Position numbers and translations under genes: made by a program
Part shown: positions 4,718 to 47,905 of the stretch, in pieces
Layout: every line of letters starts with the position of its first letter
How positions within the stretch are numbered: the first letter of the stretch is position 1
From: a virus
Lineage: Duplodnaviria; Caudoviricetes
Length of the DNA: 48,013 nt
Direction: 5' to 3' (one strand)
Virus record (IMG/VR): IMGVR_UViG_3300044477_000015
Span: 1-48,013 of that record
Notes under the pieces: model-generated
What the model was told of the DNA's origin: nothing
Database searches by the model: none
Seen by the model: only the letters and a program-made list of their open reading frames with translations

Positions 4718-5284
4718 TTATTGTTTGTTTTTTGCTCTTTCCTGGTTCTTAATGATGTTTTCTTTTAGGCCATCAATTACGTCAATATTGTAATGTTTGG
4801 CCATATTAAGGAGGACCGAAAGGCAATCGATAAGTTCAGAGCCAAAATGTTTTTTTGTTTCATTATTTTTAGGGTCTATCGCAAGAAACGCCCACGCCAA
4901 TTCTTCGCTTTCTTCTTCCAACTTCTCCATGAAGTCGTAAAAATCGGTCTCATCATTGATAAGACCGCGATCGCGAACTGCTTTGTAATTTAAATCGATC
5001 AGCATTTCTAATACCGTCATTGGGTCGCCATTGTCTTTTAAAAAATTAGATGGCATTTTGAACTCAGTATTATGCCAAGTTTCCTCCAATCTTTTTGTAA
5101 AATTTTCCCGAGCTTTTGCAACATCTGATTTAATATTTTTATTTTCTTCCATGGCTGTACATTTTAAGCATTTAAAATTATGTTCTATTTCTATGTTCTC
5201 AACCATACCCCAAACCTGCTGAACTAAGTAAAATTGTTTACCACATTCGCAGGTACAAGGGTATGAGAATTGAGCGTATTTCAC
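4718..5284 (-). CDS. MazG-like NTP pyrophosphohydrolase with N-terminal Cys-rich region
   Basis: KLEEESEEL...ELIDCLSVLLNMA...ENIIKNQER. Confidence 0.65.
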   Translation of the reverse strand: MKYAQFSYPCTCECGKQFYLVQQVWGMVENIEIEHNFKCLKCTAMEENKNIKSDVAKARENFTKRLEETWHNTEFKMPSNFLKDNGDPMTVLEMLIDLNYKAVRDRGLINDETDFYDFMEKLEEESEELAWAFLAIDPKNNETKKHFGSELIDCLSVLLNMAKHYNIDVIDGLKENIIKNQERAKNKQ

Positions 5285-7824
5285 GCTTCAACCTTATTTA
5301 TTTCATCATCAAATACGCTGAATAAACTTGGCGAAAGCGCGTTAATTTCAGCCGCTCTCAGGTATTGCAATCCATCTTTATAACTTTCGGGATTTAACTC
5401 AGTAGCTTCGCCCTTACGGCCTAATTTGATAGCCCTATATGGTACCGTCATAAGTCCGCCAAACGGATCGAAAACCAAATCACCAACATTTGAAAACCTG
5501 TTAATAAGCCTATCAACTATATCAAATTGAAGCGGGCAAATGTGCATTTGAAGTTTCTTATTTGACTGACTACCGTTGAGGGTAAGCATCCGGTTTACGT
5601 CATCCCATACAAAGAAAGTGCGGGCCGGTATATTGAGCGTTTGAAAGGTTGCGGGTAATTTGCCAATGCTGTCCAATTCTTTTGCCGTGTTTACGTGGTT
5701 TTCGTAGTCATACACGCGATCTTTCATAAAATCGTTGTAATATTTATTGACTTTATCAATTGGAAGCTGTCTTATCTCATCAGGTGTTAAAAATCGATCT
5801 CCTGAACTATTCCATTTCGCCCTGGCATCGATTTGCCATTGACCACGGGTATACTGTTCTTTTGTTTTTTCAACTGGAATATCAGCGTAGGCTTTTGAAG
5901 TATCTGAGGGTAATTTTCTGAACAGCAAAACATATTCCGGGCAACCTACACCCATTTTAGAACCATCCTTACATTGTTCAGTCCATCCGAGGCGGTAAGT
6001 TTGGTTATTTTCACGTACCACGTCCGTTTCAATGGTTATACGCCCGAAATACCGGAAACCATGTTTCAGAAAATGCATAACCGTAAAATCAGAGAACGGA
6101 TCCAAAGTGGGCATTCCATCTCCCGTGGCATTTCCAAACAAAATACGGTCCTTTACGTGTATTGCAGCAACGCGCCCAGGCTTTAATATCCTGAATAATT
6201 CAGGCGTTAGGAAATCCATCTGTTCAAAAAAATGATCATTATCTGAGGTGTGCCCAAAATCGTTGTAAGTAGGTGTGTATTCGTAATGATTAGAGAAGGG
6301 AATTGAAGTAACAATAAGGTCTTTACTGTTCTCATCCATGGCCATTGTTTCGGGTACTGCGTCCCCATTTATAGCATTGAATAGCTTACCTGATTCTTTG
6401 TAGCTGTCTGAAATAATTGAGCGCTTTAGTTTTTCCATTGTATGTGTATTTGATAATCCGTTTTCTTTAATTATTTTGGTCATTTCGTCAACTAAATAGT
6501 TGTGTTGTTGCCATTTCTTCTCAAGAGCTTTTAATATTTCGCCCTCACTTTCTGCGTAAATAATGTGAATTTCAACCGGTTTTGTTTGCTGAAATCTGTA
6601 CACGCGGTGTATTGCCTGAATAAATGAGTTAAACTCATAACCGATGCCCAAAAATATGGCTTTATAGCAATGATATTGCAGGTTACAACCCTGGCCACTT
6701 ATTTCTGGTTTCGTGGCTATGTACTGAATTTTCCCGTCCGCAAAATCTATTATAGTTTGCTCACGAATATCCATATCCTGTGTGCCATATACTTCTTTAC
6801 AAGCTGGTAATGCTCGTTTTATTGCATGCCTTTCGTTTTCGAGATCGTGCCAAATGATGTAATTGCTTTCGGGATCCGAATTAATTATTTCCATCATTTT
6901 TACAATTCGATGCTCGAGGCTTTCCCTTTTTTCCCTCGCGGCATCTTTAAGGCCAAGAGCAGCCTCCCTAAACATTTTTATTTGTCCATCCTGATCGGAT
7001 CCGGCTGTCTTATGATCAACTTTTACCTTATGATAAACCACTTTCATTTCCGGTAGGTCGTACCCTTCATTGGTATATCCTAAATCAGATGGTTTGGTAA
7101 TAAATAACGCCCATGTGCTCATCCATAACCAGAATTCCTTTTCCTTGTGAGGGTAAATAGTTAGGTTATTTGCCTGAGTAGAATCTCTTTTAAAAAACCT
7201 AGTTAAAGCCTGTCCAGTGTCCATTATTTCCAGATACCCGGCATAATGAATAAGTTCCTTGTACTTGTTTGGTGAAGGGGTTGCGGTGCAAACGAACTTA
7301 TATTTAACACCTTTAAACTTATCTAAAAACGTTTGGTATGTCTTAGAGCCATACGAGCGCAATACAGAGGCTTCATCCAAAGATGTAACGGTAAAGTATT
7401 TAGGGTTTATATTACCATCCCGTACACGTTCATAGTTTGTTATAAGTATGCTGCCTTCAGGTGCGCTTTCGCATTCTACCTGAGTTTTTACATACTGTAA
7501 ATCAATGCCAAGTTTGCGCTTTGCATCTTTAAAAAACTCTTGACGAACTCCCAATGGACATACTATTAAAGCCTTACCACCTTCTACTTTTAAGATTTCA
7601 GAGCAAATAATAAGCTGTTGAATGGTTTTCCCGAGGCCAAAGCTTTCAAAAAGTGCGCGGCGACCTCCACGAATAGCCCACTCAATAGCGTCTTTTTGAT
7701 GAGGTTTTAACGTCGTAAGGTCGTGAAATAGCGTTTGCTCAATTTTAATATCAATACCCGTTTCAGGCGCAATACATACCTTGGAAAGTAGAAACTCGTT
7801 ATAATTTTTTAATTTGTCGTTCAT
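5281..7824 (-). CDS. SNF2-like helicase fused to N4/N6-type DNA methyltransferase
   Basis: FGLGKT, LDEAS, TATP, QAIHRVYR; C-terminal IVTSIPF and DPFGGLMT. Confidence 0.85.
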   Translation of the reverse strand: MNDKLKNYNEFLLSKVCIAPETGIDIKIEQTLFHDLTTLKPHQKDAIEWAIRGGRRALFESFGLGKTIQQLIICSEILKVEGGKALIVCPLGVRQEFFKDAKRKLGIDLQYVKTQVECESAPEGSILITNYERVRDGNINPKYFTVTSLDEASVLRSYGSKTYQTFLDKFKGVKYKFVCTATPSPNKYKELIHYAGYLEIMDTGQALTRFFKRDSTQANNLTIYPHKEKEFWLWMSTWALFITKPSDLGYTNEGYDLPEMKVVYHKVKVDHKTAGSDQDGQIKMFREAALGLKDAAREKRESLEHRIVKMMEIINSDPESNYIIWHDLENERHAIKRALPACKEVYGTQDMDIREQTIIDFADGKIQYIATKPEISGQGCNLQYHCYKAIFLGIGYEFNSFIQAIHRVYRFQQTKPVEIHIIYAESEGEILKALEKKWQQHNYLVDEMTKIIKENGLSNTHTMEKLKRSIISDSYKESGKLFNAINGDAVPETMAMDENSKDLIVTSIPFSNHYEYTPTYNDFGHTSDNDHFFEQMDFLTPELFRILKPGRVAAIHVKDRILFGNATGDGMPTLDPFSDFTVMHFLKHGFRYFGRITIETDVVRENNQTYRLGWTEQCKDGSKMGVGCPEYVLLFRKLPSDTSKAYADIPVEKTKEQYTRGQWQIDARAKWNSSGDRFLTPDEIRQLPIDKVNKYYNDFMKDRVYDYENHVNTAKELDSIGKLPATFQTLNIPARTFFVWDDVNRMLTLNGSQSNKKLQMHICPLQFDIVDRLINRFSNVGDLVFDPFGGLMTVPYRAIKLGRKGEATELNPESYKDGLQYLRAAEINALSPSLFSVFDDEINKVEA

Positions 7825-8423: not shown

Positions 8424-10955
8424 TTATTTTTTAGTTAATAAGTTTGCAAATTCATTCACAAAGTCAATTTTCACCTCGTCTGTATTACCTGTAATTGCAT
8501 CAGCAATATCTCTTTTTGTTTGAATAATGTTGTAAATATGCTGGTCAATGGTATCACGTCCGAGAAAATATATAATAGTTACCGGTTTTGTTTGGCCTAT
8601 TCGGTTAAACCTATCCTCTGCCTGATCACATGCCGAGGCCGTCCATGGCTGCTCAATAAAACAAGCGGTTGAGGCTGCGTGTTGTAATCCATCTACCCCG
8701 GTACCGGCTGCCATAATACTTAAAATAGCGGTCGTACATTTGGGATCTTCTTTGAACTTACGAATCATATTTTGACGTTCTTTCAAATCAATATCCCCGG
8801 TAATAACCGCGCTGTTCTTGTAACGTTTAAGTAGTTCGTAACCAATTTCCTTCAGGTGTACGAATATTCCCAGCTTTTCACCATCTTCAATAACATCATC
8901 AATGTATTCAACTACATCAGCCATTTTACCACGGGCCGAGATGTTTTTAAGAATACCGATTTTTACCATTACCTCACCACGTAGCGCGCTTTGAATTTTT
9001 TCATCCGTGGCATCTTTATACTGCGTTAGGTAATTTATGAGGTCATTTTGAGCGGCTTCATACTCTTTACGGTTAGTAATATCACAAAGTACAACCTGCC
9101 TGCTCTTTGGTGGTAATTCCTTGGCAACTTCCTGTTTACTACGACGGTAAAAGCAGTATTTATTTAGGACGTAGTTGAGTTTCTTGAGATTGGAGGCTTC
9201 GCGTTCGCCACTGCAAAACTCCTGAGTAAACTTTCTATATTCACCAAAATAATTCATTACTCCCATTGTGGTAAGTTGTTGAATTAAATCCTTTGGTTTA
9301 TTAACTACTGGGGTACCTGTTAACAGTAATATCCATTTTTTTGCACGGGCAATACCTTGTGTAAGCTTACTCTGAATAGTACCGCTGTCCTTGATTCTAT
9401 GACTTTCGTCTACTACAATAGAATTAAACAACAGTATTTGTTTTTTAAACTTAATATAATCTAGCCTTAAAGGCAATTTTTTACCAGTTACTTTATCGTA
9501 ATGTACTTCGATTTCTTCTACAAAATACTTTTTCAGGCTTTCGTAATTAACGATAAACACCTTACACATATTAGCCTCATAGTATAACCACCAATTACGC
9601 TTAACTGAATCGTTCAATATCATAGTTATATTTCTACCTGTCCACTTTTGCCACTGGTCCTGCCAGTTATATTTTACTGATGATGGGCAAATAACAAGAC
9701 ATGGATAAACAGGATTTTCGCCGGTACGTTGGTAAAGAATGTCACCACCGACAATAGAGGCTATGGCTTGTAATGTTTTACCACAATTATGAACCACAAT
9801 GCCATTGGCAACAAAGTTTCTATACGGATCATCCATGACAATATCATAAACCTTTTTAAGTCCACAGTAAACAATTTCAGTTATTTCATCCTCCTTTGGA
9901 GTTATGTATAATCCAAAATTTCTATGTCTTTTATGTTCTATGTTATGTTCGCTTACGGTAATCAGTTCCAGATTTTCAATTCTGTTATCCGATTTATTTC
10001 TATTTTTATGATGAACATCCATATTTTTAGGAACAACATAACCCAAATGTTTTTCCATCACGATCAAATGTTCGTATACAAGCCCACCAGACCATGATCT
10101 TGGATGATTTTGATAACCTGATAACCTTACATATCCATCTTTATCTATAAAGCTACCGGTTTTATATCTTCCATTGACACGTTTAGACGAATACATACAC
10201 TTTTTGCAAATACCTAAAAACTTTGAGTACTTATAAGTAATTACACCCTCTGATGAGCCACATTCTTTGCATTTTAAAACACCATTAATTATGATATAAT
10301 CCCCGATCTTTAGTTTATCTGCTCGGATATATCCATTATGAGGTGTTAGTACTTCATGATCAAACGTAAGAGTTAGGCTTTTACCTGATTTTGTAGTTAT
10401 TGTGAGACAACTATGATAACCTTTATCAATAATATTATTCATTTTGTGTAAGCCAAATTCGCCATCTTTTAGGCACCTTACTTTAAATGATTCCTTTATT
10501 GATGATTTTGTATACTTTTCATATAACTTTTCGAGAGTTAATTTCTTAGATGCCCCTTTGATATTAAAGTTTATAATTGCATCGCCTGAAATGCAGCCCA
10601 TGTCGTCGCCTATAATTACCCGCTTATGCAATAAATTATAAGCAACTCCCTCTTTTTGATACTCCCTCATGGTTCCATTTAAAGGAATATCAAAATCTAG
10701 TTTTGGCATTGGAGGTATTGTATAGTCCTCATTAACCACCTTATTTGTAACCGATGAAAACGTGAACCCATAACGATGTGCGAATACTTCCATTTTGCGG
10801 CGTTCGCTTATAAGTACTCTCCAGGTTTTACTATCAGGATTAAAACGATAATGCTTTTCTTGACCTTCTACAAATGTTTTTTTAATAGCCTCAACAATAG
10901 AAGGCCTGTAAGGAAAAATGAGTTCAAAATAATGAGGCGTAGTACGAATTTCCAT
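8424..10955 (-). CDS. SNF2/HARP-like DEAD-box helicase interrupted by an intein
   Basis: DDMG|CGKT Walker A split by intein; VDESH, LTGTP, QAEDRFNRIGQ. Confidence 0.9.
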   Translation of the reverse strand: MEIRTTPHYFELIFPYRPSIVEAIKKTFVEGQEKHYRFNPDSKTWRVLISERRKMEVFAHRYGFTFSSVTNKVVNEDYTIPPMPKLDFDIPLNGTMREYQKEGVAYNLLHKRVIIGDDMGCISGDAIINFNIKGASKKLTLEKLYEKYTKSSIKESFKVRCLKDGEFGLHKMNNIIDKGYHSCLTITTKSGKSLTLTFDHEVLTPHNGYIRADKLKIGDYIIINGVLKCKECGSSEGVITYKYSKFLGICKKCMYSSKRVNGRYKTGSFIDKDGYVRLSGYQNHPRSWSGGLVYEHLIVMEKHLGYVVPKNMDVHHKNRNKSDNRIENLELITVSEHNIEHKRHRNFGLYITPKEDEITEIVYCGLKKVYDIVMDDPYRNFVANGIVVHNCGKTLQAIASIVGGDILYQRTGENPVYPCLVICPSSVKYNWQDQWQKWTGRNITMILNDSVKRNWWLYYEANMCKVFIVNYESLKKYFVEEIEVHYDKVTGKKLPLRLDYIKFKKQILLFNSIVVDESHRIKDSGTIQSKLTQGIARAKKWILLLTGTPVVNKPKDLIQQLTTMGVMNYFGEYRKFTQEFCSGEREASNLKKLNYVLNKYCFYRRSKQEVAKELPPKSRQVVLCDITNRKEYEAAQNDLINYLTQYKDATDEKIQSALRGEVMVKIGILKNISARGKMADVVEYIDDVIEDGEKLGIFVHLKEIGYELLKRYKNSAVITGDIDLKERQNMIRKFKEDPKCTTAILSIMAAGTGVDGLQHAASTACFIEQPWTASACDQAEDRFNRIGQTKPVTIIYFLGRDTIDQHIYNIIQTKRDIADAITGNTDEVKIDFVNEFANLLTKK
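9786..10595 (-). mobile_element. Intein (270 aa) with HNH homing endonuclease
   Basis: Starts CISGD, block B LTFDHEV, ends FVANGIVVHN followed by Cys+1; HNH motif VHHKNRNKSDNRIENL. Confidence 0.9.
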
Positions 10956-31852: not shown

Positions 31853-32247
31853 TAGGATGCAATACAGCCAGCCCGCGAATAATCAGATGAATCGAGAGCG
31901 CGAATAATACCGCCAACTTGACCCGTTAAAGCGGCTATCGTTGCAATCATTTTGCCCTGTTGATCTTTCAGGTCTTTTACATAAGCTGTTTTGCTCTGTA
32001 ATTCGCCTGTAGTCATCCTATGGACAAATTTTAATTCATTGACTTCGTTGGGATTTGAAAGCGGCCAAGCTAATTTTAGCGTTAGGGTATTGTCATCATT
32101 AACGATAATAAAACCGTCAACAATAGCGTCTACCATTTGCGCCTCAATAGCTTCGTAACTTTCTTTTCTGTAAGAAGCTGAAAGCTTTTTACTATTAAAC
32201 CAGCGTTCAAACTCCTGCTTTGCTATTTCCTCAGTTACTTTTTCCAT
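31843..32247 (-). CDS. Tail assembly chaperone
   Basis: Between tube and tape measure; ends LDSSDY...YFF at a slippery site. Confidence 0.8.
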   Translation of the reverse strand: MEKVTEEIAKQEFERWFNSKKLSASYRKESYEAIEAQMVDAIVDGFIIVNDDNTLTLKLAWPLSNPNEVNELKFVHRMTTGELQSKTAYVKDLKDQQGKMIATIAALTGQVGGIIRALDSSDYSRAGCIASYFF

Positions 32248-41417: not shown

Positions 41418-41472
41418 TTGTTGGAAATTTTATGTAAATATATAGCAGATGCACACGTATTTACTTAAACAT

Positions 41473-41503
41473 TTTGTAGAATTAAAGGGATTTTATACAT
41501 TTG
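41473..41503 (+). promoter_or_regulatory. Bacteroidota consensus promoter for the XRE gene
   Basis: TTTG-N19-TACATTTG. Confidence 0.75.
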
Positions 41504-41532
41504 TACATCAATATCGGAATAAATTTAACCGC

Positions 41533-41724
41533 ATGGATATTTTCGACAAACTGATTAAAATCAGAAAAGAGCAAGGCAAGTGCCAAAAGGAATTGGCTTA
41601 TCATTGCAAGGTTTCTTTAACTACCATGAGCCGCTACGAAGGTAAGAAGCGTAAAATACCGTACGACATGCTGGTTGAATACGCGGAGTTTTTGAAATTG
41701 GATATACGAATACTGGTAAAATGA
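41533..41724 (+). CDS. XRE-family HTH regulator
   Basis: LIKIRKEQGKCQKELA....VS.TTMSRYE.KKR. Confidence 0.85.
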   Translation: MDIFDKLIKIRKEQGKCQKELAYHCKVSLTTMSRYEGKKRKIPYDMLVEYAEFLKLDIRILVK

Positions 41725-41969
41725 TGAAACCTAAACACGTTGCAATAATTGGAAACAATAAGGCAGAAACGGCTATTTTGGCAGCTATTGAATCTATGCA
41801 TCAATTTGAAAAAATTAACATAATATGTATTGATAGTGATGGAGGTAGCATTCATCCGCGCATAGATGAAATGAATACAACATTTGCAAATCCTGTACGT
41901 TTATTACCTTATTATCCTCCGTTAAGTAGACGCGAAAGAAGAAAATTAGCCCGTAAAAAGAAAAAATAA
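41721..41969 (+). CDS. Hypothetical protein
   Basis: Coupled to the XRE gene; basic tail SRRERRK. Confidence 0.5.
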   Translation: MMKPKHVAIIGNNKAETAILAAIESMHQFEKINIICIDSDGGSIHPRIDEMNTTFANPVRLLPYYPPLSRRERRKLARKKKK

Positions 41970-42017
41970 TACACACTTTAACCCCTTTATTTTCCTACAA
42001 AAGTTAAGTTAATTAAA

Positions 42018-42105
42018 TTTAGTGCAATTAAATTGCACCGTATTTCGAAACTTTTTTTACCTTTGATGCGTAAACGTAACCAAACAGTAAAAATTTAGCG
42101 ATATG
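42018..42105 (+). promoter_or_regulatory. Early promoter/leader copy 2 with palindromic operator
   Basis: GTGCAAT-TAA-ATTGCAC (42022-42038), TACCTTTG (42058-42065). Confidence 0.75.
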
Positions 42106-42438
42106 TCAACAGTTAAACAAATAAAAAAAGCAATCGAAAACGTGATAAACGGTTTTAGTTCGCAATATATCAGTGCTGAAGCTGAAAATGGTGAATCAAT
42201 TAAAATTCGCGTATCTAATCACAAATCGAATCCTTCAAGAATGGGTGACAAAGACATTTCGTTAGTAGTTTTTGTTCCTGAAAAAGAAGTTGAATCTGAT
42301 GAATATAACAATTGGGGTAAGAATAAGAAGAACTTTTACGATATTCCAAATCAATATTTTCTTGACGAAAACGGTTCTTTTGAAGAACAATTTCAAGAAA
42401 TTGAAGATTTACTTAACTGGCACGAAATAGTATTTTAA
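42103..42438 (+). CDS. Hypothetical protein under the early promoter
   Basis: 111-aa acidic ORF, IRVSNH motif. Confidence 0.6.
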   Translation: MSTVKQIKKAIENVINGFSSQYISAEAENGESIKIRVSNHKSNPSRMGDKDISLVVFVPEKEVESDEYNNWGKNKKNFYDIPNQYFLDENGSFEEQFQEIEDLLNWHEIVF

Positions 42439-44477
42439 ACCCCATACATCTGCTTTTTAACGATCTTACAGAAATAAGGCCAGCTAATTTCCTTTACCTT
42501 TAACGACTTGAAAAAGTGTTCGACAAATATATCTCGAACCGCAGGGGTATAAACTGCGCAATCAAAGAAATGGTTTGCAACCGAGCTATTTCGCTTCTTC
42601 CATACATATCCAATTTCGGTACCATCTGCGTTTAATTTCGGCGTTTTTTCCTCACTTTCGAATTGCTTAAAATATCCTTTGTAAGAGTATTTGCCATTGT
42701 CCGGTTGTGGGAAATTCATAAATCCATGAGGCTGCGTAAGATTTCCACCCTCGTTCCATACCAGTTCAACCCTATCAGCTATTATATCTTTGAGCTGGTT
42801 TACCTCCAATAAATACAGATTATCGCGTTCTTGTGATTTCTTATGTGTATCGGTATCAACTCCGTGTTTACGGACTTTCTCGGTATCCCCTTTAACGCCA
42901 ATGGTTACAAGTGGCCTGTTCTGCACGCTCATGTGATCAATAAAAGGATAAACGTATTTTGTGAATGCCCCGGTGTCAATACCAGCTATAAGTATTTCAT
43001 AATTGCGCCCGTTGTCTCCGGTGTAAAGCCTTTGTAATACATCCCTTTGAAACACGTCCCAAATGTTATTAATAGGTTCGTTGTTCCTGCACGTCCAGCG
43101 TTCGCGGTGTGAATTCTTATCGCCACGTTGGAATGTACCGATTGAACCAGCATCAATCGAATAAGTATTACCCGTTTCAGCATGAGCAACCACCTCATAA
43201 TCTAATCGCACGTCGTCATCGGTAAACCCGTTTAAGTCACAGGTACATGTAAGCATTATAATTTTACCATTACCATCAGCCTCGGATAAATTACAAGGAA
43301 CCTCAAATATTTTATAGGGCCGTGTATTAAGAGCAAGCTGGTTAATCTGTGGGGTTTTACCTTTTTCCTCATAGGTTTGGCCAAGGACCAAGTTTAAGAA
43401 TACCTGCAGCTTTTTCTTTAGTACGATATTATCACCCGGAAAAATCTTTAACCATTGGCCCGCGTAATGGGTCCAGTCAAAGAAACCTGGAGGTGCGTAA
43501 ATTCCGCTTATGTGGTAGCTTAACCAGTCAGGCCGCGAAGGCTTGGCGGTTGGCCTCCATGTTCCATTTGCCAGCATTTCCCGTTTATGAGATTCTTTGA
43601 AATAGCCTTTGCATTCCTGACATATATACCCTACTGATTTCTCAATTAAATTACCGTGTTCGTCTTTTTCAAAATGTACCCCTACATGCTCGTTACTGCT
43701 TTCTATCTTTTCGTACCAAATGAATTTTATATACGTACCACACAGCGGACAGGGCATCATATAATAACGCTGGTCACCCTGGTTAAACGCATATTTAATT
43801 ACTGAATTGTGTTCAAGTTCCGGCGTACTGATGAGGTTTATCTTCATCGTATCTTTGTACGAATTGAAACGCATGAATATAAGTTCTAGAATATCACCGG
43901 CGAACTTTTGCGCACGTGCAGCCGCTTCGAGATCATCAAAGAAACCGTATTTATAAGAGTTTTGACGACCTATCTTATCAACTGTTTTGATGGAAAAGAA
44001 TTGAAGCGAACCGCCTGGAAACTCTTTCGCGTCTTTTGTATCTCCACTTCGTTTATTGTTTTTCTTTAACGTGTTTGGGCGTATCAAATGTGCTATACCG
44101 CTGTTCTGTAACATCTGATCGATCTTCTTTGTAACTGCAATGTCTGCCATTTCCTTATCAGCTAATGTCATTACCATAGGGCCGGGATGATTCTTTATCA
44201 GGTATCCAATTCCTGTTTCAACAAAGTTTGTACTTTTCCCTATTTGAGCGCCTCCCATAATTGTTTGTATTCGCATCGGGTGGTAAGGGCTTAAGTTGTT
44301 TACTGGTTCACGCCAAAAAGGGAAACGCTCATACGATTGTTTACCCGGAAACGCCGTTACATCGCTGGTAAGTACACGGTATTTTTCAGCCCACTCGGTA
44401 GGTAGTTCTTTTGATATTTGCGTATCAAAATAGTCTAGGATTTCGTTGATCTGGGATTCCTGGTTAGTCATTATCAA
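42435..44477 (-). CDS. Terminase large subunit (lambda GpA family)
   Basis: GAQIGKS, FDDLE, ISTP, GDQRYY..CP.CG, IDTG, NHFFDC.VY. Confidence 0.95.
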   Translation of the reverse strand: MIMTNQESQINEILDYFDTQISKELPTEWAEKYRVLTSDVTAFPGKQSYERFPFWREPVNNLSPYHPMRIQTIMGGAQIGKSTNFVETGIGYLIKNHPGPMVMTLADKEMADIAVTKKIDQMLQNSGIAHLIRPNTLKKNNKRSGDTKDAKEFPGGSLQFFSIKTVDKIGRQNSYKYGFFDDLEAAARAQKFAGDILELIFMRFNSYKDTMKINLISTPELEHNSVIKYAFNQGDQRYYMMPCPLCGTYIKFIWYEKIESSNEHVGVHFEKDEHGNLIEKSVGYICQECKGYFKESHKREMLANGTWRPTAKPSRPDWLSYHISGIYAPPGFFDWTHYAGQWLKIFPGDNIVLKKKLQVFLNLVLGQTYEEKGKTPQINQLALNTRPYKIFEVPCNLSEADGNGKIIMLTCTCDLNGFTDDDVRLDYEVVAHAETGNTYSIDAGSIGTFQRGDKNSHRERWTCRNNEPINNIWDVFQRDVLQRLYTGDNGRNYEILIAGIDTGAFTKYVYPFIDHMSVQNRPLVTIGVKGDTEKVRKHGVDTDTHKKSQERDNLYLLEVNQLKDIIADRVELVWNEGGNLTQPHGFMNFPQPDNGKYSYKGYFKQFESEEKTPKLNADGTEIGYVWKKRNSSVANHFFDCAVYTPAVRDIFVEHFFKSLKVKEISWPYFCKIVKKQMYGV

Positions 44478-44700
44478 TTATATATTTATGTCCAAGTATT
44501 ACCGTTGCTTTCTTTGTTTTCTTAATGCCATTGTATGACTTTCCTGTATTATCGGCATATTCCTGAATACTTACAGGGCAAAGAAATAAACCAGCGAGTT
44601 CAATTAATTGAACCAAACCTTCATTGCTCCATTTGCCTTTAGAAATTGTTTCACCAAGTTTTTGAAGTGATTTCTGTTCATATTCTGATAGTTGTGACAT
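44464..44700 (-). CDS. Small HTH-like protein at the cassette array boundary
   Basis: SIQEYADNTGKSYNGIKK helix-turn-helix-like segment. Confidence 0.55.
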   Translation of the reverse strand: MSQLSEYEQKSLQKLGETISKGKWSNEGLVQLIELAGLFLCPVSIQEYADNTGKSYNGIKKTKKATVILGHKYIIDND

Positions 44701-44746
44701 AGGTGCAATTTATTGAACTGATTTTATACATATGTTGTGCGTAATG

Positions 44747-45001
44747 CTACTCGTCGCAATCTGACAAGTCTAATTTTTCACCCCATTCCGTGCCAAAGTC
44801 AACCCCGATAGATTTACAAGCTGATAATATACCGTGTTCAATATGGTCGATAGGTTCTAATCCTACTACCTTTTTTCGTTTCCCAATTGGGTATTTTAAT
44901 TCTTTTCTAATACTTTTCATTACATACTTTATGTGCAATGAAAACGATTCCAATTCTTTTGGACTGATAATAAATTGATTGTGTAACGCTGAATAATTCA
45001 T
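44747..45001 (-). CDS. Hypothetical protein (cassette 1)
   Basis: ORF bounded by GTTGTGCGTA/TACGCACAAC. Confidence 0.6.
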   Translation of the reverse strand: MNYSALHNQFIISPKELESFSLHIKYVMKSIRKELKYPIGKRKKVVGLEPIDHIEHGILSACKSIGVDFGTEWGEKLDLSDCDE

Positions 45002-45038
45002 AATATTTAATTTATATTGTTAATAATAAAGCACATAC

Positions 45039-45167
45039 GCACAACACGTGGTATAAAACAAAGCGGCTTTAGTGGTTATCGAAGCTTTGTATCCCGTAGC
45101 AAGTGCTCAATAATTTGATAGTTCATTACTCGCACTCCGCTTCGATTTCATACCACCAACGTTACCA
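45039..45167 (+). repeat. attC-like site 1 (129 bp)
   Basis: GCACAAC-ac-GTGGTATAAAACAAAGCGG...CCGCTTCGATTTCATACCAC-caac-GTTACCA. Confidence 0.8.
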
Positions 45168-45173
45168 GCAATG

Positions 45174-45449
45174 TTAAAAACCGCAATTTGCAGCGAAGTA
45201 CAAATAATAATCTTCATTGCAACTTGACAATTCTATATAGCTTTTTTGCTCCTCTGGAAAAGTATGTATTGCCAAATGACTTTCACCGAGTAACCACAAT
45301 GCTGTATATCCTTGCGGTTCAAAAAAATGTTCAATAAAATTAAGTATTTCAAACCCACTTAATTCAAGTAAATCACTAAAGTTATTTTTTAACTTTGTTG
45401 GGTCAGTTTCTTTTAACCAACCGTTTTTATTCCAAATTTTTGCTTCCAT
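45174..45449 (-). CDS. speD: S-adenosylmethionine decarboxylase-like pyruvoyl enzyme (cassette 2)
   Basis: HFFEPQGYT..WLLGE/SHLAIHTFPE...IELSSC with ESH autocleavage site. Confidence 0.85.
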   Translation of the reverse strand: MEAKIWNKNGWLKETDPTKLKNNFSDLLELSGFEILNFIEHFFEPQGYTALWLLGESHLAIHTFPEEQKSYIELSSCNEDYYLYFAANCGF

Positions 45450-46411
45450 TATTTCAATTTTTCAAAGTGTTTATTTATATTTTTTGGGTTACCTTTATAA
45501 AATACAAGTATATTTTGGTGTTGTTTCCCTATTTTTCTTGCGTTACTCATATACGCGCCTGCTCTCATATGTAAATTACCAATCGGGTTTTGTAATATAA
45601 TTTCGTTATAATAATGCAATCCAGCATCGCACATTATTTGTATTATTTTAGGTACAATCCCTAAATATACACCAGTGTTTTTGTGCCTTACCTCTCCAAT
45701 AACTATACACGCAAATCTATTTTCTTTTAGTTTGTTTACTGTCTTTTTTAATATGCTTTCAATAGTCTTAAAAAAATCTTCATAACTCATATTTGATAAA
45801 TCATTTTCTAAATCAGAGTATATTTCCAAATCAGCATATGGTGGGCAACTGAAAATAAAATCTTTGCTATCATTTTCAATGTGTAAATCAATATTTTCAG
45901 AAGTATCACAAATATAATTGCCTTTTAGTCCGTGCAAATCAATTAAATCCTGATTAAAATCTACCTGTTCTTTTCTTAATTCAATTCCTGTAAATGGTCT
46001 GTTTTTATATGCACTACAAAATCCAAATACAGCATCGCCAGCAAATGGGTCTAATGTTTCAAATCCATCATTTGTGAACCAACTCAATATTATTTCACAC
46101 ATTACTGGGTCTAAAATACTTGTAGTATCTCCTTTTATTGCCATAAATTGCCAATTTTTTGAACCTTCTTCATGCCCACATCTACTCAATGTGTTTTTTC
46201 TTACTTGTGCCTTATCGTTAATTTTAATCATCCACTTTTTTTTCTTTTGTTGCCATTCTTTTGAGGCACTATTTAAAATTGAAAAGGGTGGCACAATAAA
46301 CCAATCTTCTAACTTCATTTTATCAACAATTGGTTCTCCGAAAAGATTTAAAGAAACACTGCTGGTAACACGTGGTATAGTTAATTGGGGGCTTTGTTCG
46401 TTATTCATCAT
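45449..46411 (-). CDS. Amino (N4/N6)-type DNA methyltransferase-like protein (cassette 2)
   Basis: LDPFAG (motif I), GIELR, FSCPPY (motif IV variant), HQNILVFYKG. Confidence 0.8.
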   Translation of the reverse strand: MMNNEQSPQLTIPRVTSSVSLNLFGEPIVDKMKLEDWFIVPPFSILNSASKEWQQKKKKWMIKINDKAQVRKNTLSRCGHEEGSKNWQFMAIKGDTTSILDPVMCEIILSWFTNDGFETLDPFAGDAVFGFCSAYKNRPFTGIELRKEQVDFNQDLIDLHGLKGNYICDTSENIDLHIENDSKDFIFSCPPYADLEIYSDLENDLSNMSYEDFFKTIESILKKTVNKLKENRFACIVIGEVRHKNTGVYLGIVPKIIQIMCDAGLHYYNEIILQNPIGNLHMRAGAYMSNARKIGKQHQNILVFYKGNPKNINKHFEKLK

Positions 46412-46491
46412 TCGTTATATTTATTAAGTTTTTACAAGCGGATAGGTTGCCGGTATCTAATCCCCAATTAACCATACCACCACCGTTATAC
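46363..46491 (+). repeat. attC-like site 2 (129 bp)
   Basis: TGGTAAC-ac-GTGGTATAGTTAATTGGGG...CCCCAATTAACCATACCAC-cacc-GTTATAC. Confidence 0.8.
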
Positions 46492-46497
46492 ACAACC

Positions 46498-47232
46498 CTA
46501 AAGAACGTCTGCGAACAGTCCAGTTTGGATTGTGTTGTTTTGTTTATATATACCTAAAGCACTTTCAAATATTGCCAATCCGATTTCGGGAACTACACAA
46601 TTGTTTAAAAGTTTCTTTTTATTTGGGTGGCTTTTATCGGTTAAGTCAAAGCCTAATTTATGGTGGTTTTGTCCTTCACTTCTTTTGCCTCCTAATCGCT
46701 TAACTGGTCCCATTCTTCCAATCGAACCTTCACTTTTTAATTTTGGTATTGTAAAGTTCGCCCAAAAACAATGCCTTCCTGAGCGTTGCGGTTTAATCAA
46801 AGGTTCGTAATATGGTTCAACATTTTCAACACAATACTTGCCTTTAAAAAAGTGTTGTAAGAATATTATTTCTTGGTACAAACTCATATCAGGGTATCTA
46901 ATCGTACCAGCTCCAACTAAAAAGTAATTACAACCTGAATGAGTTGGGCAAGGAGGTGAAGCCCAAATAAAGTCAAATTCGCTGTAATGGTCAATTAAAT
47001 ACTGGTGTGCATCCCCTACAATTACTTTATCATTCGGAAAAAAATCCTGATATATTTTAGCAATTTTAGGGTCATATTCAACCGCTGTTACTTCAATATT
47101 TCCGCTCCATAATTTTCTATTACCGCCAATACCAGCATATAAGTTAAGAATACGAAAGGGCTGTGTATAACATCGGCTCATACCCAATTGGGGTTTAAGT
47201 GGTTCTGTAAGGTTTGTATCTTCGTTTTTCAT
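46498..47232 (-). CDS. C5 cytosine DNA methyltransferase (cassette 3)
   Basis: NLYAGIGG, ASPPC, VENV, C-terminal NCVVP. Confidence 0.85.
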   Translation of the reverse strand: MKNEDTNLTEPLKPQLGMSRCYTQPFRILNLYAGIGGNRKLWSGNIEVTAVEYDPKIAKIYQDFFPNDKVIVGDAHQYLIDHYSEFDFIWASPPCPTHSGCNYFLVGAGTIRYPDMSLYQEIIFLQHFFKGKYCVENVEPYYEPLIKPQRSGRHCFWANFTIPKLKSEGSIGRMGPVKRLGGKRSEGQNHHKLGFDLTDKSHPNKKKLLNNCVVPEIGLAIFESALGIYKQNNTIQTGLFADVL

Positions 47233-47296
47233 TTGTTGTAATTTGATAATTTAGTTCTCGTAAATCCCCAACTGGGCATAGCCGTCGGCGTTACTT
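47165..47296 (+). repeat. attC-like site 3 (132 bp)
   Basis: GTATAAC-at-CGGCTCATACCCAATTGGGG...CCCCAACTGGGCATAGCCG-tcggc-GTTACTT. Confidence 0.8.
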
Positions 47297-47905
47297 TAAT
47301 AAACTTTCATTCACAATATTTCCCATGTTTTGTCGTATTTCGAAGATGCTGCGCTTTGTGCTTTCATTGCTAATGTCAGTTAGTTTACTGCACGCGCGCG
47401 TTATTATCTCGTTTCCAGCTTGTAATTCGTTGAGAGTATCTCGTATTAACTGCTCTGTTTGCTGGCTGTACATTGCTTTGTACCGATTTATAACCTCACC
47501 GAGTACTTTTTTTACAGCATCAACAGAAACCAGACGGCCCTCAATACGGTCGTTCCTTAACCGGGACTGTCGTATTTCTTCTTGTAGTTTTTCATTTCGT
47601 AAGTTATTCGTTTGTTGGAATTCTAAGTATAATGGATCGTTTACAGCCCGGCTTATGCGTTTACCTTGTTTAGGTGGTTCTTCTACGGACTTTGGTACCT
47701 TGGTAGGTTGCTCTTTTTCGCTTGGTTTTACTTTTACCTTGGCGCTGGTTTCTCGGGAATCAATAAATATTTTGTTGATCGGATCATCTTCGTCTATGTA
47801 ACCTTCCTCAAGAAAAATAAGCTTACCCCGTTTTTTATAAGTGTATACATTGGTTCTGTTTAACCCGTACTTCTCAGCAAATTCAGGCACTTTAAGTAAT
47901 CCCAT
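47291..47905 (-). CDS. Terminase small subunit (Nu1-like)
   Basis: N-terminal HTH (EFAEKYGLNRTNVY...RGKL), coiled coil followed by GRLVSVDAV. Confidence 0.75.
   Translation of the reverse strand: MGLLKVPEFAEKYGLNRTNVYTYKKRGKLIFLEEGYIDEDDPINKIFIDSRETSAKVKVKPSEKEQPTKVPKSVEEPPKQGKRISRAVNDPLYLEFQQTNNLRNEKLQEEIRQSRLRNDRIEGRLVSVDAVKKVLGEVINRYKAMYSQQTEQLIRDTLNELQAGNEIITRACSKLTDISNESTKRSIFEIRQNMGNIVNESLLK

Follow-up and report, generated by a model that had tools for sequence, protein, structure and literature searches.

Between the terminase genes of a tailed phage lies an array of three gene cassettes, separated by long imperfect hairpins and capped by a small gene, orf78. The window, by which we mean the whole stretch of 48,013 nucleotides analysed here, is IMG/VR record IMGVR_UViG_3300044477_000015 (Caudoviricetes). 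This record is linear, about 92% complete, and encodes a gpA terminase, a lambda-type portal, a major capsid protein and a baseplate. Among named phages, the best matches of its terL are Cellulophaga and Flavobacterium phages (~36%). The minus strand holds most genes, the whole array included, in the order terS, three cassettes, orf78 and terL (Table 1). GTT triplets are found at 44734, 45161, 46485 and 47290 and AAC triplets end at 45045, 46369 and 47171; measured from AAC to GTT, hairpins A, B and C are 121, 121 and 124 nt long. A preliminary description, made from the DNA letters alone, had given palindromes of 129, 129 and 132 bp, which are the same hairpins plus 4 flanking bases per side. 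It also placed the array correctly between terS and terL, and all six of its cassette-end motifs (pairing 10/10, 14/15 and 14/15) are where it had put them. It overlooked the minus-strand orientation of the cassette genes, the start of two open reading frames (ORFs) in hairpins, and the entry site and 78-aa gene at 44464-44736. A Bacteroidota integron-like array of three cassettes, moved by a recombinase and headed by orf78, is in our view quite probably the best explanation of the whole locus.

Table 1. Features of the array and its flanks, in window positions.
Feature	Position	Strand	Remarks
terL, lambda gpA-type terminase large subunit, flank	42435..44477	-	Pfam GpA_ATPase 1e-44, GpA_nuclease 1e-34
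orf78, 78-aa gene capping the array	44464..44700	-	Two N-terminal helices and a predicted Xis/Cox/BldC-like winged helix
Head palindrome copy 2	44598..44613	.	Inside orf78, V-Q-L-I-E-L codons
Head palindrome copy 1, predicted orf78 operator	44703..44717	-	Just upstream of the orf78 start
Entry (attI-like) site, predicted	44720..44736	-	AAC core, then TATA-rich box; G↓TT at 44734 on the plus strand
Cassette 1, 312 bp	44734..45045	-	Ends pair 10/10; 84-aa ORF at 44747-45001
Hairpin site A, 121 nt	45043..45163	-	4x2 internal loop beside the core; R1 105.8 bits (training member)
Cassette 2, 1209 bp	45161..46369	-	Ends pair 14/15; same cassette in locus L179
S-adenosylmethionine decarboxylase-like gene, cassette 2	45174-45449	-	Pfam PF02675
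N6/N4-type DNA methyltransferase, cassette 2	45449-46411	-	Pfam PF01555; ORF start within hairpin B
Hairpin site B, 121 nt	46367..46487	-	Moves with cassette 2; supplies first codons of cassette 2 ORF
Cassette 3, 687 bp	46485..47171	-	Ends pair 14/15
C5-type DNA methyltransferase, cassette 3	46498-47232	-	PF00145 1e-8
Hairpin site C, 124 nt	47169..47292	-	5x2 loop; R1 74.4 bits (training member)
terS, terminase small subunit, flank	47291..47905	-	PHROG 57, E 1e-4 (weak)

All three cassettes have open frames and perfect or near-perfect ends. For the 84-aa ORF of cassette 1, the protein family searches gave no family match and the single-protein viral scan no viral relative. Two cassette ORFs begin within hairpins, and in cassette 3 the ATG, GTG or TTG codons that precede the first methyltransferase motif (codons 1, 16 and 18) all lie in hairpin C. 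At its far end, the array joins terS at an AAC triplet, where the TAA stop of terS overlaps the AAC core of site C. The identity of terS is also backed by its position, as in relatives it immediately precedes terL. On inspection, A, B and C have different bulges, and the consensus has no fixed extrahelical base.

As for the hairpins themselves, 3 of the 47,278 GTT..AAC pairs of the window (100-2500 nt apart) reach a complementarity of 14/15, cassettes 2 and 3 among them. Perfect runs of at least 10 are found in six such pairs, three of which are the three cassettes, mutually adjacent. A simple hairpin detector gave its top three scores in the window to A, B and C. Single hairpins fold no more than modestly better than shuffles (z -1.1 to -2.4), with the minus strand always better. 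The stronger case comes from comparison: a pattern drawn from sites A and B matches 24 viral stretches. We aligned 26 sites and built from them the hairpin model R1; 8 of the 18 stem pairs changed on both sides, a figure inflated by kinship, and 98% of cells pair. Rfam reported nothing near the gathering score for the window. Chance palindromes were ruled out by the pair ranking, the viral matches and the two-sided stem changes. Other contigs of the same sediment run match hairpin ends only (window 46366-46435 and 47167-47204), which points to further members of the hairpin family in the same sample.

The terL alignment gave 14 loci. Two of them, at 23% identity, were set aside; the other 12 share at least 54% and represent about seven lineages. 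Here terS abuts terL in nine, around 290 nt without sites separate the two genes in two more, and a single relative (L015/L037) has a different array, with five hairpins, orf78 and unrelated cargo made of a radical SAM gene, two C5-type methyltransferases and small ORFs. Two metagenome contigs likewise have terS abutting terL. Since the array-free relatives are also without orf78 and head, the platform came in as a block. Gene content thus varies among relatives, and the cargo of L015/L037 bears out the earlier suggestion of a plug-in locus for DNA-modification genes.

Five loci were obtained with the N6/N4 methyltransferase as query. One of them, L179, contains cassette 2 (82% identity), enlarged by one internal gene, in another gene neighbourhood. 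Identical positions number 9/40 ahead of the upstream AAC, 54/60 within the hairpin, 58/60 where the cassette starts and 38/40 in the stretch leading up to the downstream AAC; the hairpin beyond it is a different one. The boundaries of this shared cassette fall at the AAC/GTT cores, as a comparison of relatives was expected to reveal, and they indicate that the moving unit is a hairpin with its downstream gene, 45162-46485 in plus-strand coordinates. In L182, a cassette whose ends are similar stands behind another hairpin, and L181 has an upstream hairpin with a different cassette start. The C5 methyltransferase gene of L004 is 73% identical to that of cassette 3 and has different, co-varied ends and a short hairpin. 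Furthermore, among 112 similar viral hairpin pairs the downstream flank alone is shared in 15 and the upstream flank alone in 1; flank-sharing in host sites is uninformative (1 vs 1 of 47 pairs). Judging from these sequence comparisons, the cassettes are mobile. The single-protein scan with terL found no viral relatives, and blastn of the array against GenBank phages matched cargo genes alone. The methyltransferase and decarboxylase gene pair is also found at L180:2992-4181 and L183:3055-4285 with neither hairpins nor paired ends, at 84% DNA identity to cassette 2 for L180, and is possibly a pre-cassette or decayed form.

The same locus could be a frozen relic, assembled in a recombinase-bearing phage and moved as a block by non-specific recombination, with its shuffling now ended. 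The empty relatives, without head and orf78, speak for such a block arrival. For a relic it also counts that no more than 5 of 50 array- or orf78-bearing virus records contain any tyrosine recombinase, and that just one of these resembles the array type. Likewise, no cassette joint was seen in one DNA run, probably from the source sample, a run that is uninformative on activity. Still, we hold a relic to be unlikely, given that the three cassettes keep their ends and frames, that a relative combines this head, at the same locus, with other cassettes, and that cassette 2 has an 82% identical copy elsewhere.

R1 matches 66 of the 151 genomes that we sampled from the Bacteroidota phylum. Breznakibacter xylanolyticus is matched in 37 places, and one of its arrays begins downstream of a tyrosine recombinase. 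These 37 matches (G001, L146-L152) are scattered among numerous small contigs, resembling a large chromosomal array at which the assembly breaks. The best match of the enzyme is XerA; its TIGR02249 score is 215.5 vs a cut-off of 265, and it has 18 residues at the IntI-specific (I2) insertion, where IntI4 has 61. A XerA-like enzyme (E 1e-70) is present in 19/62 hairpin-positive vs 0/18 hairpin-negative genomes (P 0.005), the genomes searched being 62 of the 70 with hairpins and 18 of the 85 without. A search of hosts for the repeats beside a tyrosine recombinase, suggested earlier, was successful: 15 of 20 host enzyme loci (20 of 21 enzyme matches were examined) have R1 matches downstream, on the opposite strand. 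Host enzyme L151:127-940 has a long N-terminal extension with a HARP match below the Pfam cut-off (E 2e-4). It is the one host enzyme scanned in this respect, and the phage enzyme L184 has neither extension nor HARP.

For viruses, we took the best 80 of 542 related enzyme loci. All 135 R1 matches at these loci are on the strand of the enzyme, with 125 upstream and 2 downstream of it in the 76 phage loci where the enzyme ORF was located. Other Bacteroidota-type phages have their own enzyme of 263-290 aa at the array head, in the order array, entry site and recombinase. The preliminary description had proposed a host tyrosine recombinase acting in trans; such an enzyme is one candidate, and other phages have an enzyme of their own. 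The enzyme could be supplied to the window's phage by a host or by a co-infecting phage. Motif regular expressions found no recombinase in the fetched loci. Two records, that of L058 (L184/L189) and L211, have an orf78 module and a small recombinase together, several kb apart.

Next, cassette ends pair with each other more often than with the neighbouring end. Own-end pairing of at least 11/13 is seen in 92/172 viral intervals, vs 19/172 for the neighbouring end, and in 39/45 intervals of host arrays, vs 5. At position 11, a G.T pair on the hairpin strand is present in 71/90 viral and 36/46 host intervals, and a Watson-Crick pair in 1 each. The longest frame is on the hairpin strand in phages (61:1, 30 unclear) but on the opposite one in hosts (4:25, 10 unclear). 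The G.T asymmetry thus tracks the site and not the coding strand, which is what we would expect of a folded single DNA strand. On the same ground we ruled out a main function at the RNA level, the asymmetry keeping to the hairpin strand despite opposite gene strands.

These data also bear on an exchange of double-stranded DNA at the 13-bp cassette ends and TATA boxes, with the hairpins serving mainly for expression. Linked enzymes without I2 and with XerA as best match would suit it, and so would the start codons within hairpins B and C. It is improbable all the same, since arm sequences vary while pairing is retained, and neither a double-strand nor an RNA role predicts a G.T asymmetry that stays on the hairpin strand whatever the coding strand.

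The array is headed by orf78, which has 43 database relatives (44 matches with itself) and 90 loci, 88 after removal of two duplicates. It has no sequence match in Pfam, PHROG, NCBIfam or PDB and no tblastn match among GenBank phages; in the ESM Atlas it matched unnamed viral clusters alone, where rows below 0.9 are leads. Within 5 kb of orf78 in the 88 loci, there are 110 R1 matches upstream (50 loci, 302 kb) vs 1 downstream (376 kb), a count that left out three reverse-strand echoes and one more distant match. Conservation starts at an AAC located around 35 nt upstream of the start codon; then come a TATA-rich box and a palindrome, and this leader pattern fits 68/88 loci. With a 31-nt matrix trained on the other loci, the entry site of the window ranks first of 2003 AAC sites (29.0 vs -1.5). 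The 14-nt part of the matrix after AAC finds a junction 29-112 nt behind 14/20 host enzymes and a head in front of 44/63 phage enzymes, where recombinase heads were called at or above approximately the 97.5th percentile of the score. As one matrix finds the heads of orf78, of host and of phage recombinases, all three appear to be one type of entry site. In phages with their own enzyme, the slot of orf78 is held by the small recombinase.

The palindrome is specific to orf78 heads, with a median score of 20.7; recombinase heads reach 12.8 at most. An ATG lies 0-5 nt past the first palindrome in 48/63 orf78 leaders, and 58/63 have a second copy, at spacings of 92-94 (6), 101-105 (32) or 111-113 (10), clusters that are around 10 bp apart. 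Both copies in the window, 105 bp apart, are the top two motif sites there. Synonymous identity at Q, I and E of copy 2 is 1.0, 0.95 and 0.97, compared with ~0.2-0.75 elsewhere in orf78. Codon-position identity of the gene is 0.61/0.73/0.41, and this codon pattern ruled out a non-coding artefact; a stop is present in 5/88 matches. Genes downstream of orf78 belong to 49 protein families among 66 loci, which indicates that the head module itself is mobile. They include primase, portal, HNH, tape measure and others, so a terminase-specific module was discarded. A cassette was rejected too, as there is no conserved AAC at the 3' ends of orf78, and so was a recombinase fragment, as the profile matched 1/80 recombinase loci, far from the enzyme gene.

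The model of orf78 (predicted local distance difference test, pLDDT, 94.7) has two helices and then a winged helix. Residues 40-78 align weakly to Pukovnik Xis (Z 3.4, root-mean-square deviation (rmsd) 2.0, 39 residues). Weak alignments were also obtained with RdfS (Z 3.5, rmsd 5.2, 53 residues), BldC (Z 3.1, rmsd 1.9, 39 residues), Cox, and phage proteins annotated as excisionase or helix-turn-helix (HTH). Like Pukovnik Xis (4j2n), RdfS (8dgl), P2 Cox (4lhf) and BldC, orf78 is a small protein with a predicted C-terminal winged helix, beside a recombination site. It differs from them in its weak structural scores, the lack of a sequence match, an extra pair of N-terminal helices, candidate sites that are palindromic instead of direct repeats, and no integrase alongside. 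The least certain part of our explanation, at slightly less than an even chance, is the reading of orf78 that we prefer: it would bind both palindromes, with their spacing of 105 bp, and serve a borrowed recombinase as a directionality or access factor.

A plain autorepressor is about as likely. On this account the array is the same, and orf78 would be an autoregulated transcription factor, or a terminal cap that tunes read-through out of the cassettes to the genes downstream, with no role in recombination. One palindrome just before the orf78 start and another in the gene make an autorepressor layout, and BldC, SoxR and Par also match the fold. However, orf78 is one-sided by 110:1, ~35 nt from the crossover, in the recombinase slot and followed by 49 families in 66 loci, a position that a plain regulator does not need. 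We give this account a substantial chance of being right, if below one half.

The array shares several features with integrons (PMC5027507, PMC7790495): an AAC/GTT core at the crossover, self-complementary cassette ends, an unpaired spacer by the core, one hairpin strand that folds better, and a hairpin-less entry site at one end with a hairpin at the far end. Arrays of Bacteroidota hosts also keep the classical gene orientation (25:4). On the other hand, RYYYAAC/GTTRRRY is matched at 0/6 ends, end complementarity extends over 10-15 bp and includes, at position 11, a fixed pair that is not Watson-Crick, and the spacer loops are 4x2, 4x2 and 5x2 in A, B and C. The phage genes share the strand of the hairpin and are preceded by the site, which is sometimes translated. 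Furthermore, the linked recombinase is without the IntI insertion, with recombinase classes as in PMC8138268, and a small gene with a predicted winged helix stands at the head. The preliminary description had called the signature of integron cassettes established; this did not hold, with the consensus failing at six ends, the genes reversed relative to host arrays and the enzymes lacking the insertion. The array is integron-like but fails three defining integron features, and it is not a classical integron.

The closest published case is that of Qi et al. 2023 (PMC9892861), who described clusters of attC sites lacking an integron integrase (CALINs) with methyltransferases in phages, including Polaribacter phage P12002L. 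P12002L, too, is a Bacteroidota phage whose array has methyltransferase cargo and no integrase. The 24-nt core of its attC1 is common to the short site of L004, the ends of its gp35 cassette self-pair, and R1 matches its genome on the coding strand (E 2.5e-6); unlike ours, it has no match to orf78 or to an array-type recombinase. The published 'divergent attC' pair (L269:29170-30075) consists of a short hairpin of this family ahead of a self-pairing cassette (attC1) and a hairpin-less cassette end behind it (attC2, oppositely oriented to attC1 in PMC9892861). Further family sites are at 32224 and 38036-40948 of L269. The accessible text of PMC9892861 takes the sites as divergent classical attCs and mentions no head site, I2-less enzyme or capping gene.

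A classical CALIN on which a true IntI acts in trans would share the AAC/GTT core and the array geometry, and Qi et al. gave that name to a member of this family, one of whose two sites recombined with IntI1. We regard it as very improbable for the window. The core consensus fails at 6/6 ends, and the linked enzyme scores well under the TIGR02249 cut-off (215.5 vs 265), with 18 residues where IntI4 has 61. In the accessible text of PMC9892861, the hairpin-type attC1 of P12002L has no verified IntI1 junction, and the site that worked corresponds to the head end of the array. Insertion at attG sites (Loot et al., bioRxiv 2022.09.11.507474) is alike in that the far end of our array joins the terS stop at an AAC/GTT triplet, and unlike in that single IntI cassettes are inserted there, compared with a whole platform and head module here. 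Beyond Qi et al., we found no account of the system, and none of a capping gene, in the literature searched, where subscription papers were thinly covered. New here, as undescribed in that literature, is an array ending at an entry site and a head module with a 78-aa gene.

We propose that the AAC/GTT core is where each hairpin, with its downstream gene, would be cut and joined, in the form of folded single-stranded DNA. The enzyme would be a simple tyrosine recombinase borrowed by the phage and supplied in trans. Intermediates would be circular, the minus (G.T-rich) strand would be the one used, and insertion would occur at 44734. The terS-terL transcript may serve to express the cassettes, hairpins B and C providing starts, and the cassette methyltransferases may methylate phage DNA against host restriction. 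In this scheme orf78 is a predicted excisionase-like DNA-binding protein that would control the entry site. A wider proposal, which we put forward tentatively as the less probable side of the question, is that Bacteroidota phages run a second kind of integron, where a mobile head module, made up of an entry site and an excisionase-like protein, replaces the recombinase gene and recruits or steers a borrowed enzyme. This would be a widespread phage class with folded single-stranded sites, an I2-less recombinase and two in-phase operators.

Several observations weigh against a recombinase-moved array headed by orf78. The winged helix predicted for orf78 is of a type also used by many repressors. 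All its fold scores are at Z <4, tied with unrelated helical proteins; nothing is above Z 3.5, and the best Foldseek hit (E 0.007) is an unnamed protein. The leader pattern was written from the same 88 loci in which it was counted, and loci are related, hence counts are not independent. In terms of sites, 80/172 viral intervals are below 11/13 in own-end pairing, through missed sites or decay, and the methyltransferase and S-adenosylmethionine decarboxylase pair occurs without sites in L180 and L183. The joint-free DNA run belongs here as well. As for the enzyme, the record contains no PF00589 or PF00239 recombinase, within its ~92% completeness, which agrees with the earlier statement that the window has no integrase. 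At the strict cut-off, 43/62 hairpin-positive genomes have no enzyme match, and the host loci, from genomes picked for hairpins, consist mainly of DNA downstream of the enzyme, with the side control absent. Finally, the I2 insertion is held necessary for single-strand recombination (PMC7790495), and the array-linked enzymes are without it.

Outside the array, the window has a third methyltransferase at 5281-7824 (minus strand), in an 847-aa protein where an SNF2-related domain is fused to an N6/N4 methyltransferase domain. At 8424-10955 (minus strand), an intein with an HNH endonuclease splits an SNF2 helicase gene. Three small opposite-strand genes, one of them an HTH regulator, separate terL from the portal region at 41449-42438 (plus strand). 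A second variable spot is suggested here, as contigs from the source run branch at 42023-42105 and 42296.

Lastly, in terms of what these arrays mean, R1 sites in 66/151 genomes of the phylum compare with a single complete integron named in Bacteroidetes proper in the accessible text on IntegronFinder 2.0 (PMC9024848). If an I2-less enzyme recombines the hairpins, the accepted account of the origin of single-strand recombination is incomplete, and with enzyme, head site and hairpins identified, such recombination is directly testable. The cassette and the non-cassette form of one gene pair, at 84% DNA identity in L180, bear on how cassettes are made. Should the wider proposal of a second integron kind be true, it would be an integron platform under the control of a directionality factor. 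For arrays without an integrase, the capping gene is a concrete candidate for their control, and for the phage, the array is a route to swap methyltransferases inside its packaging operon.

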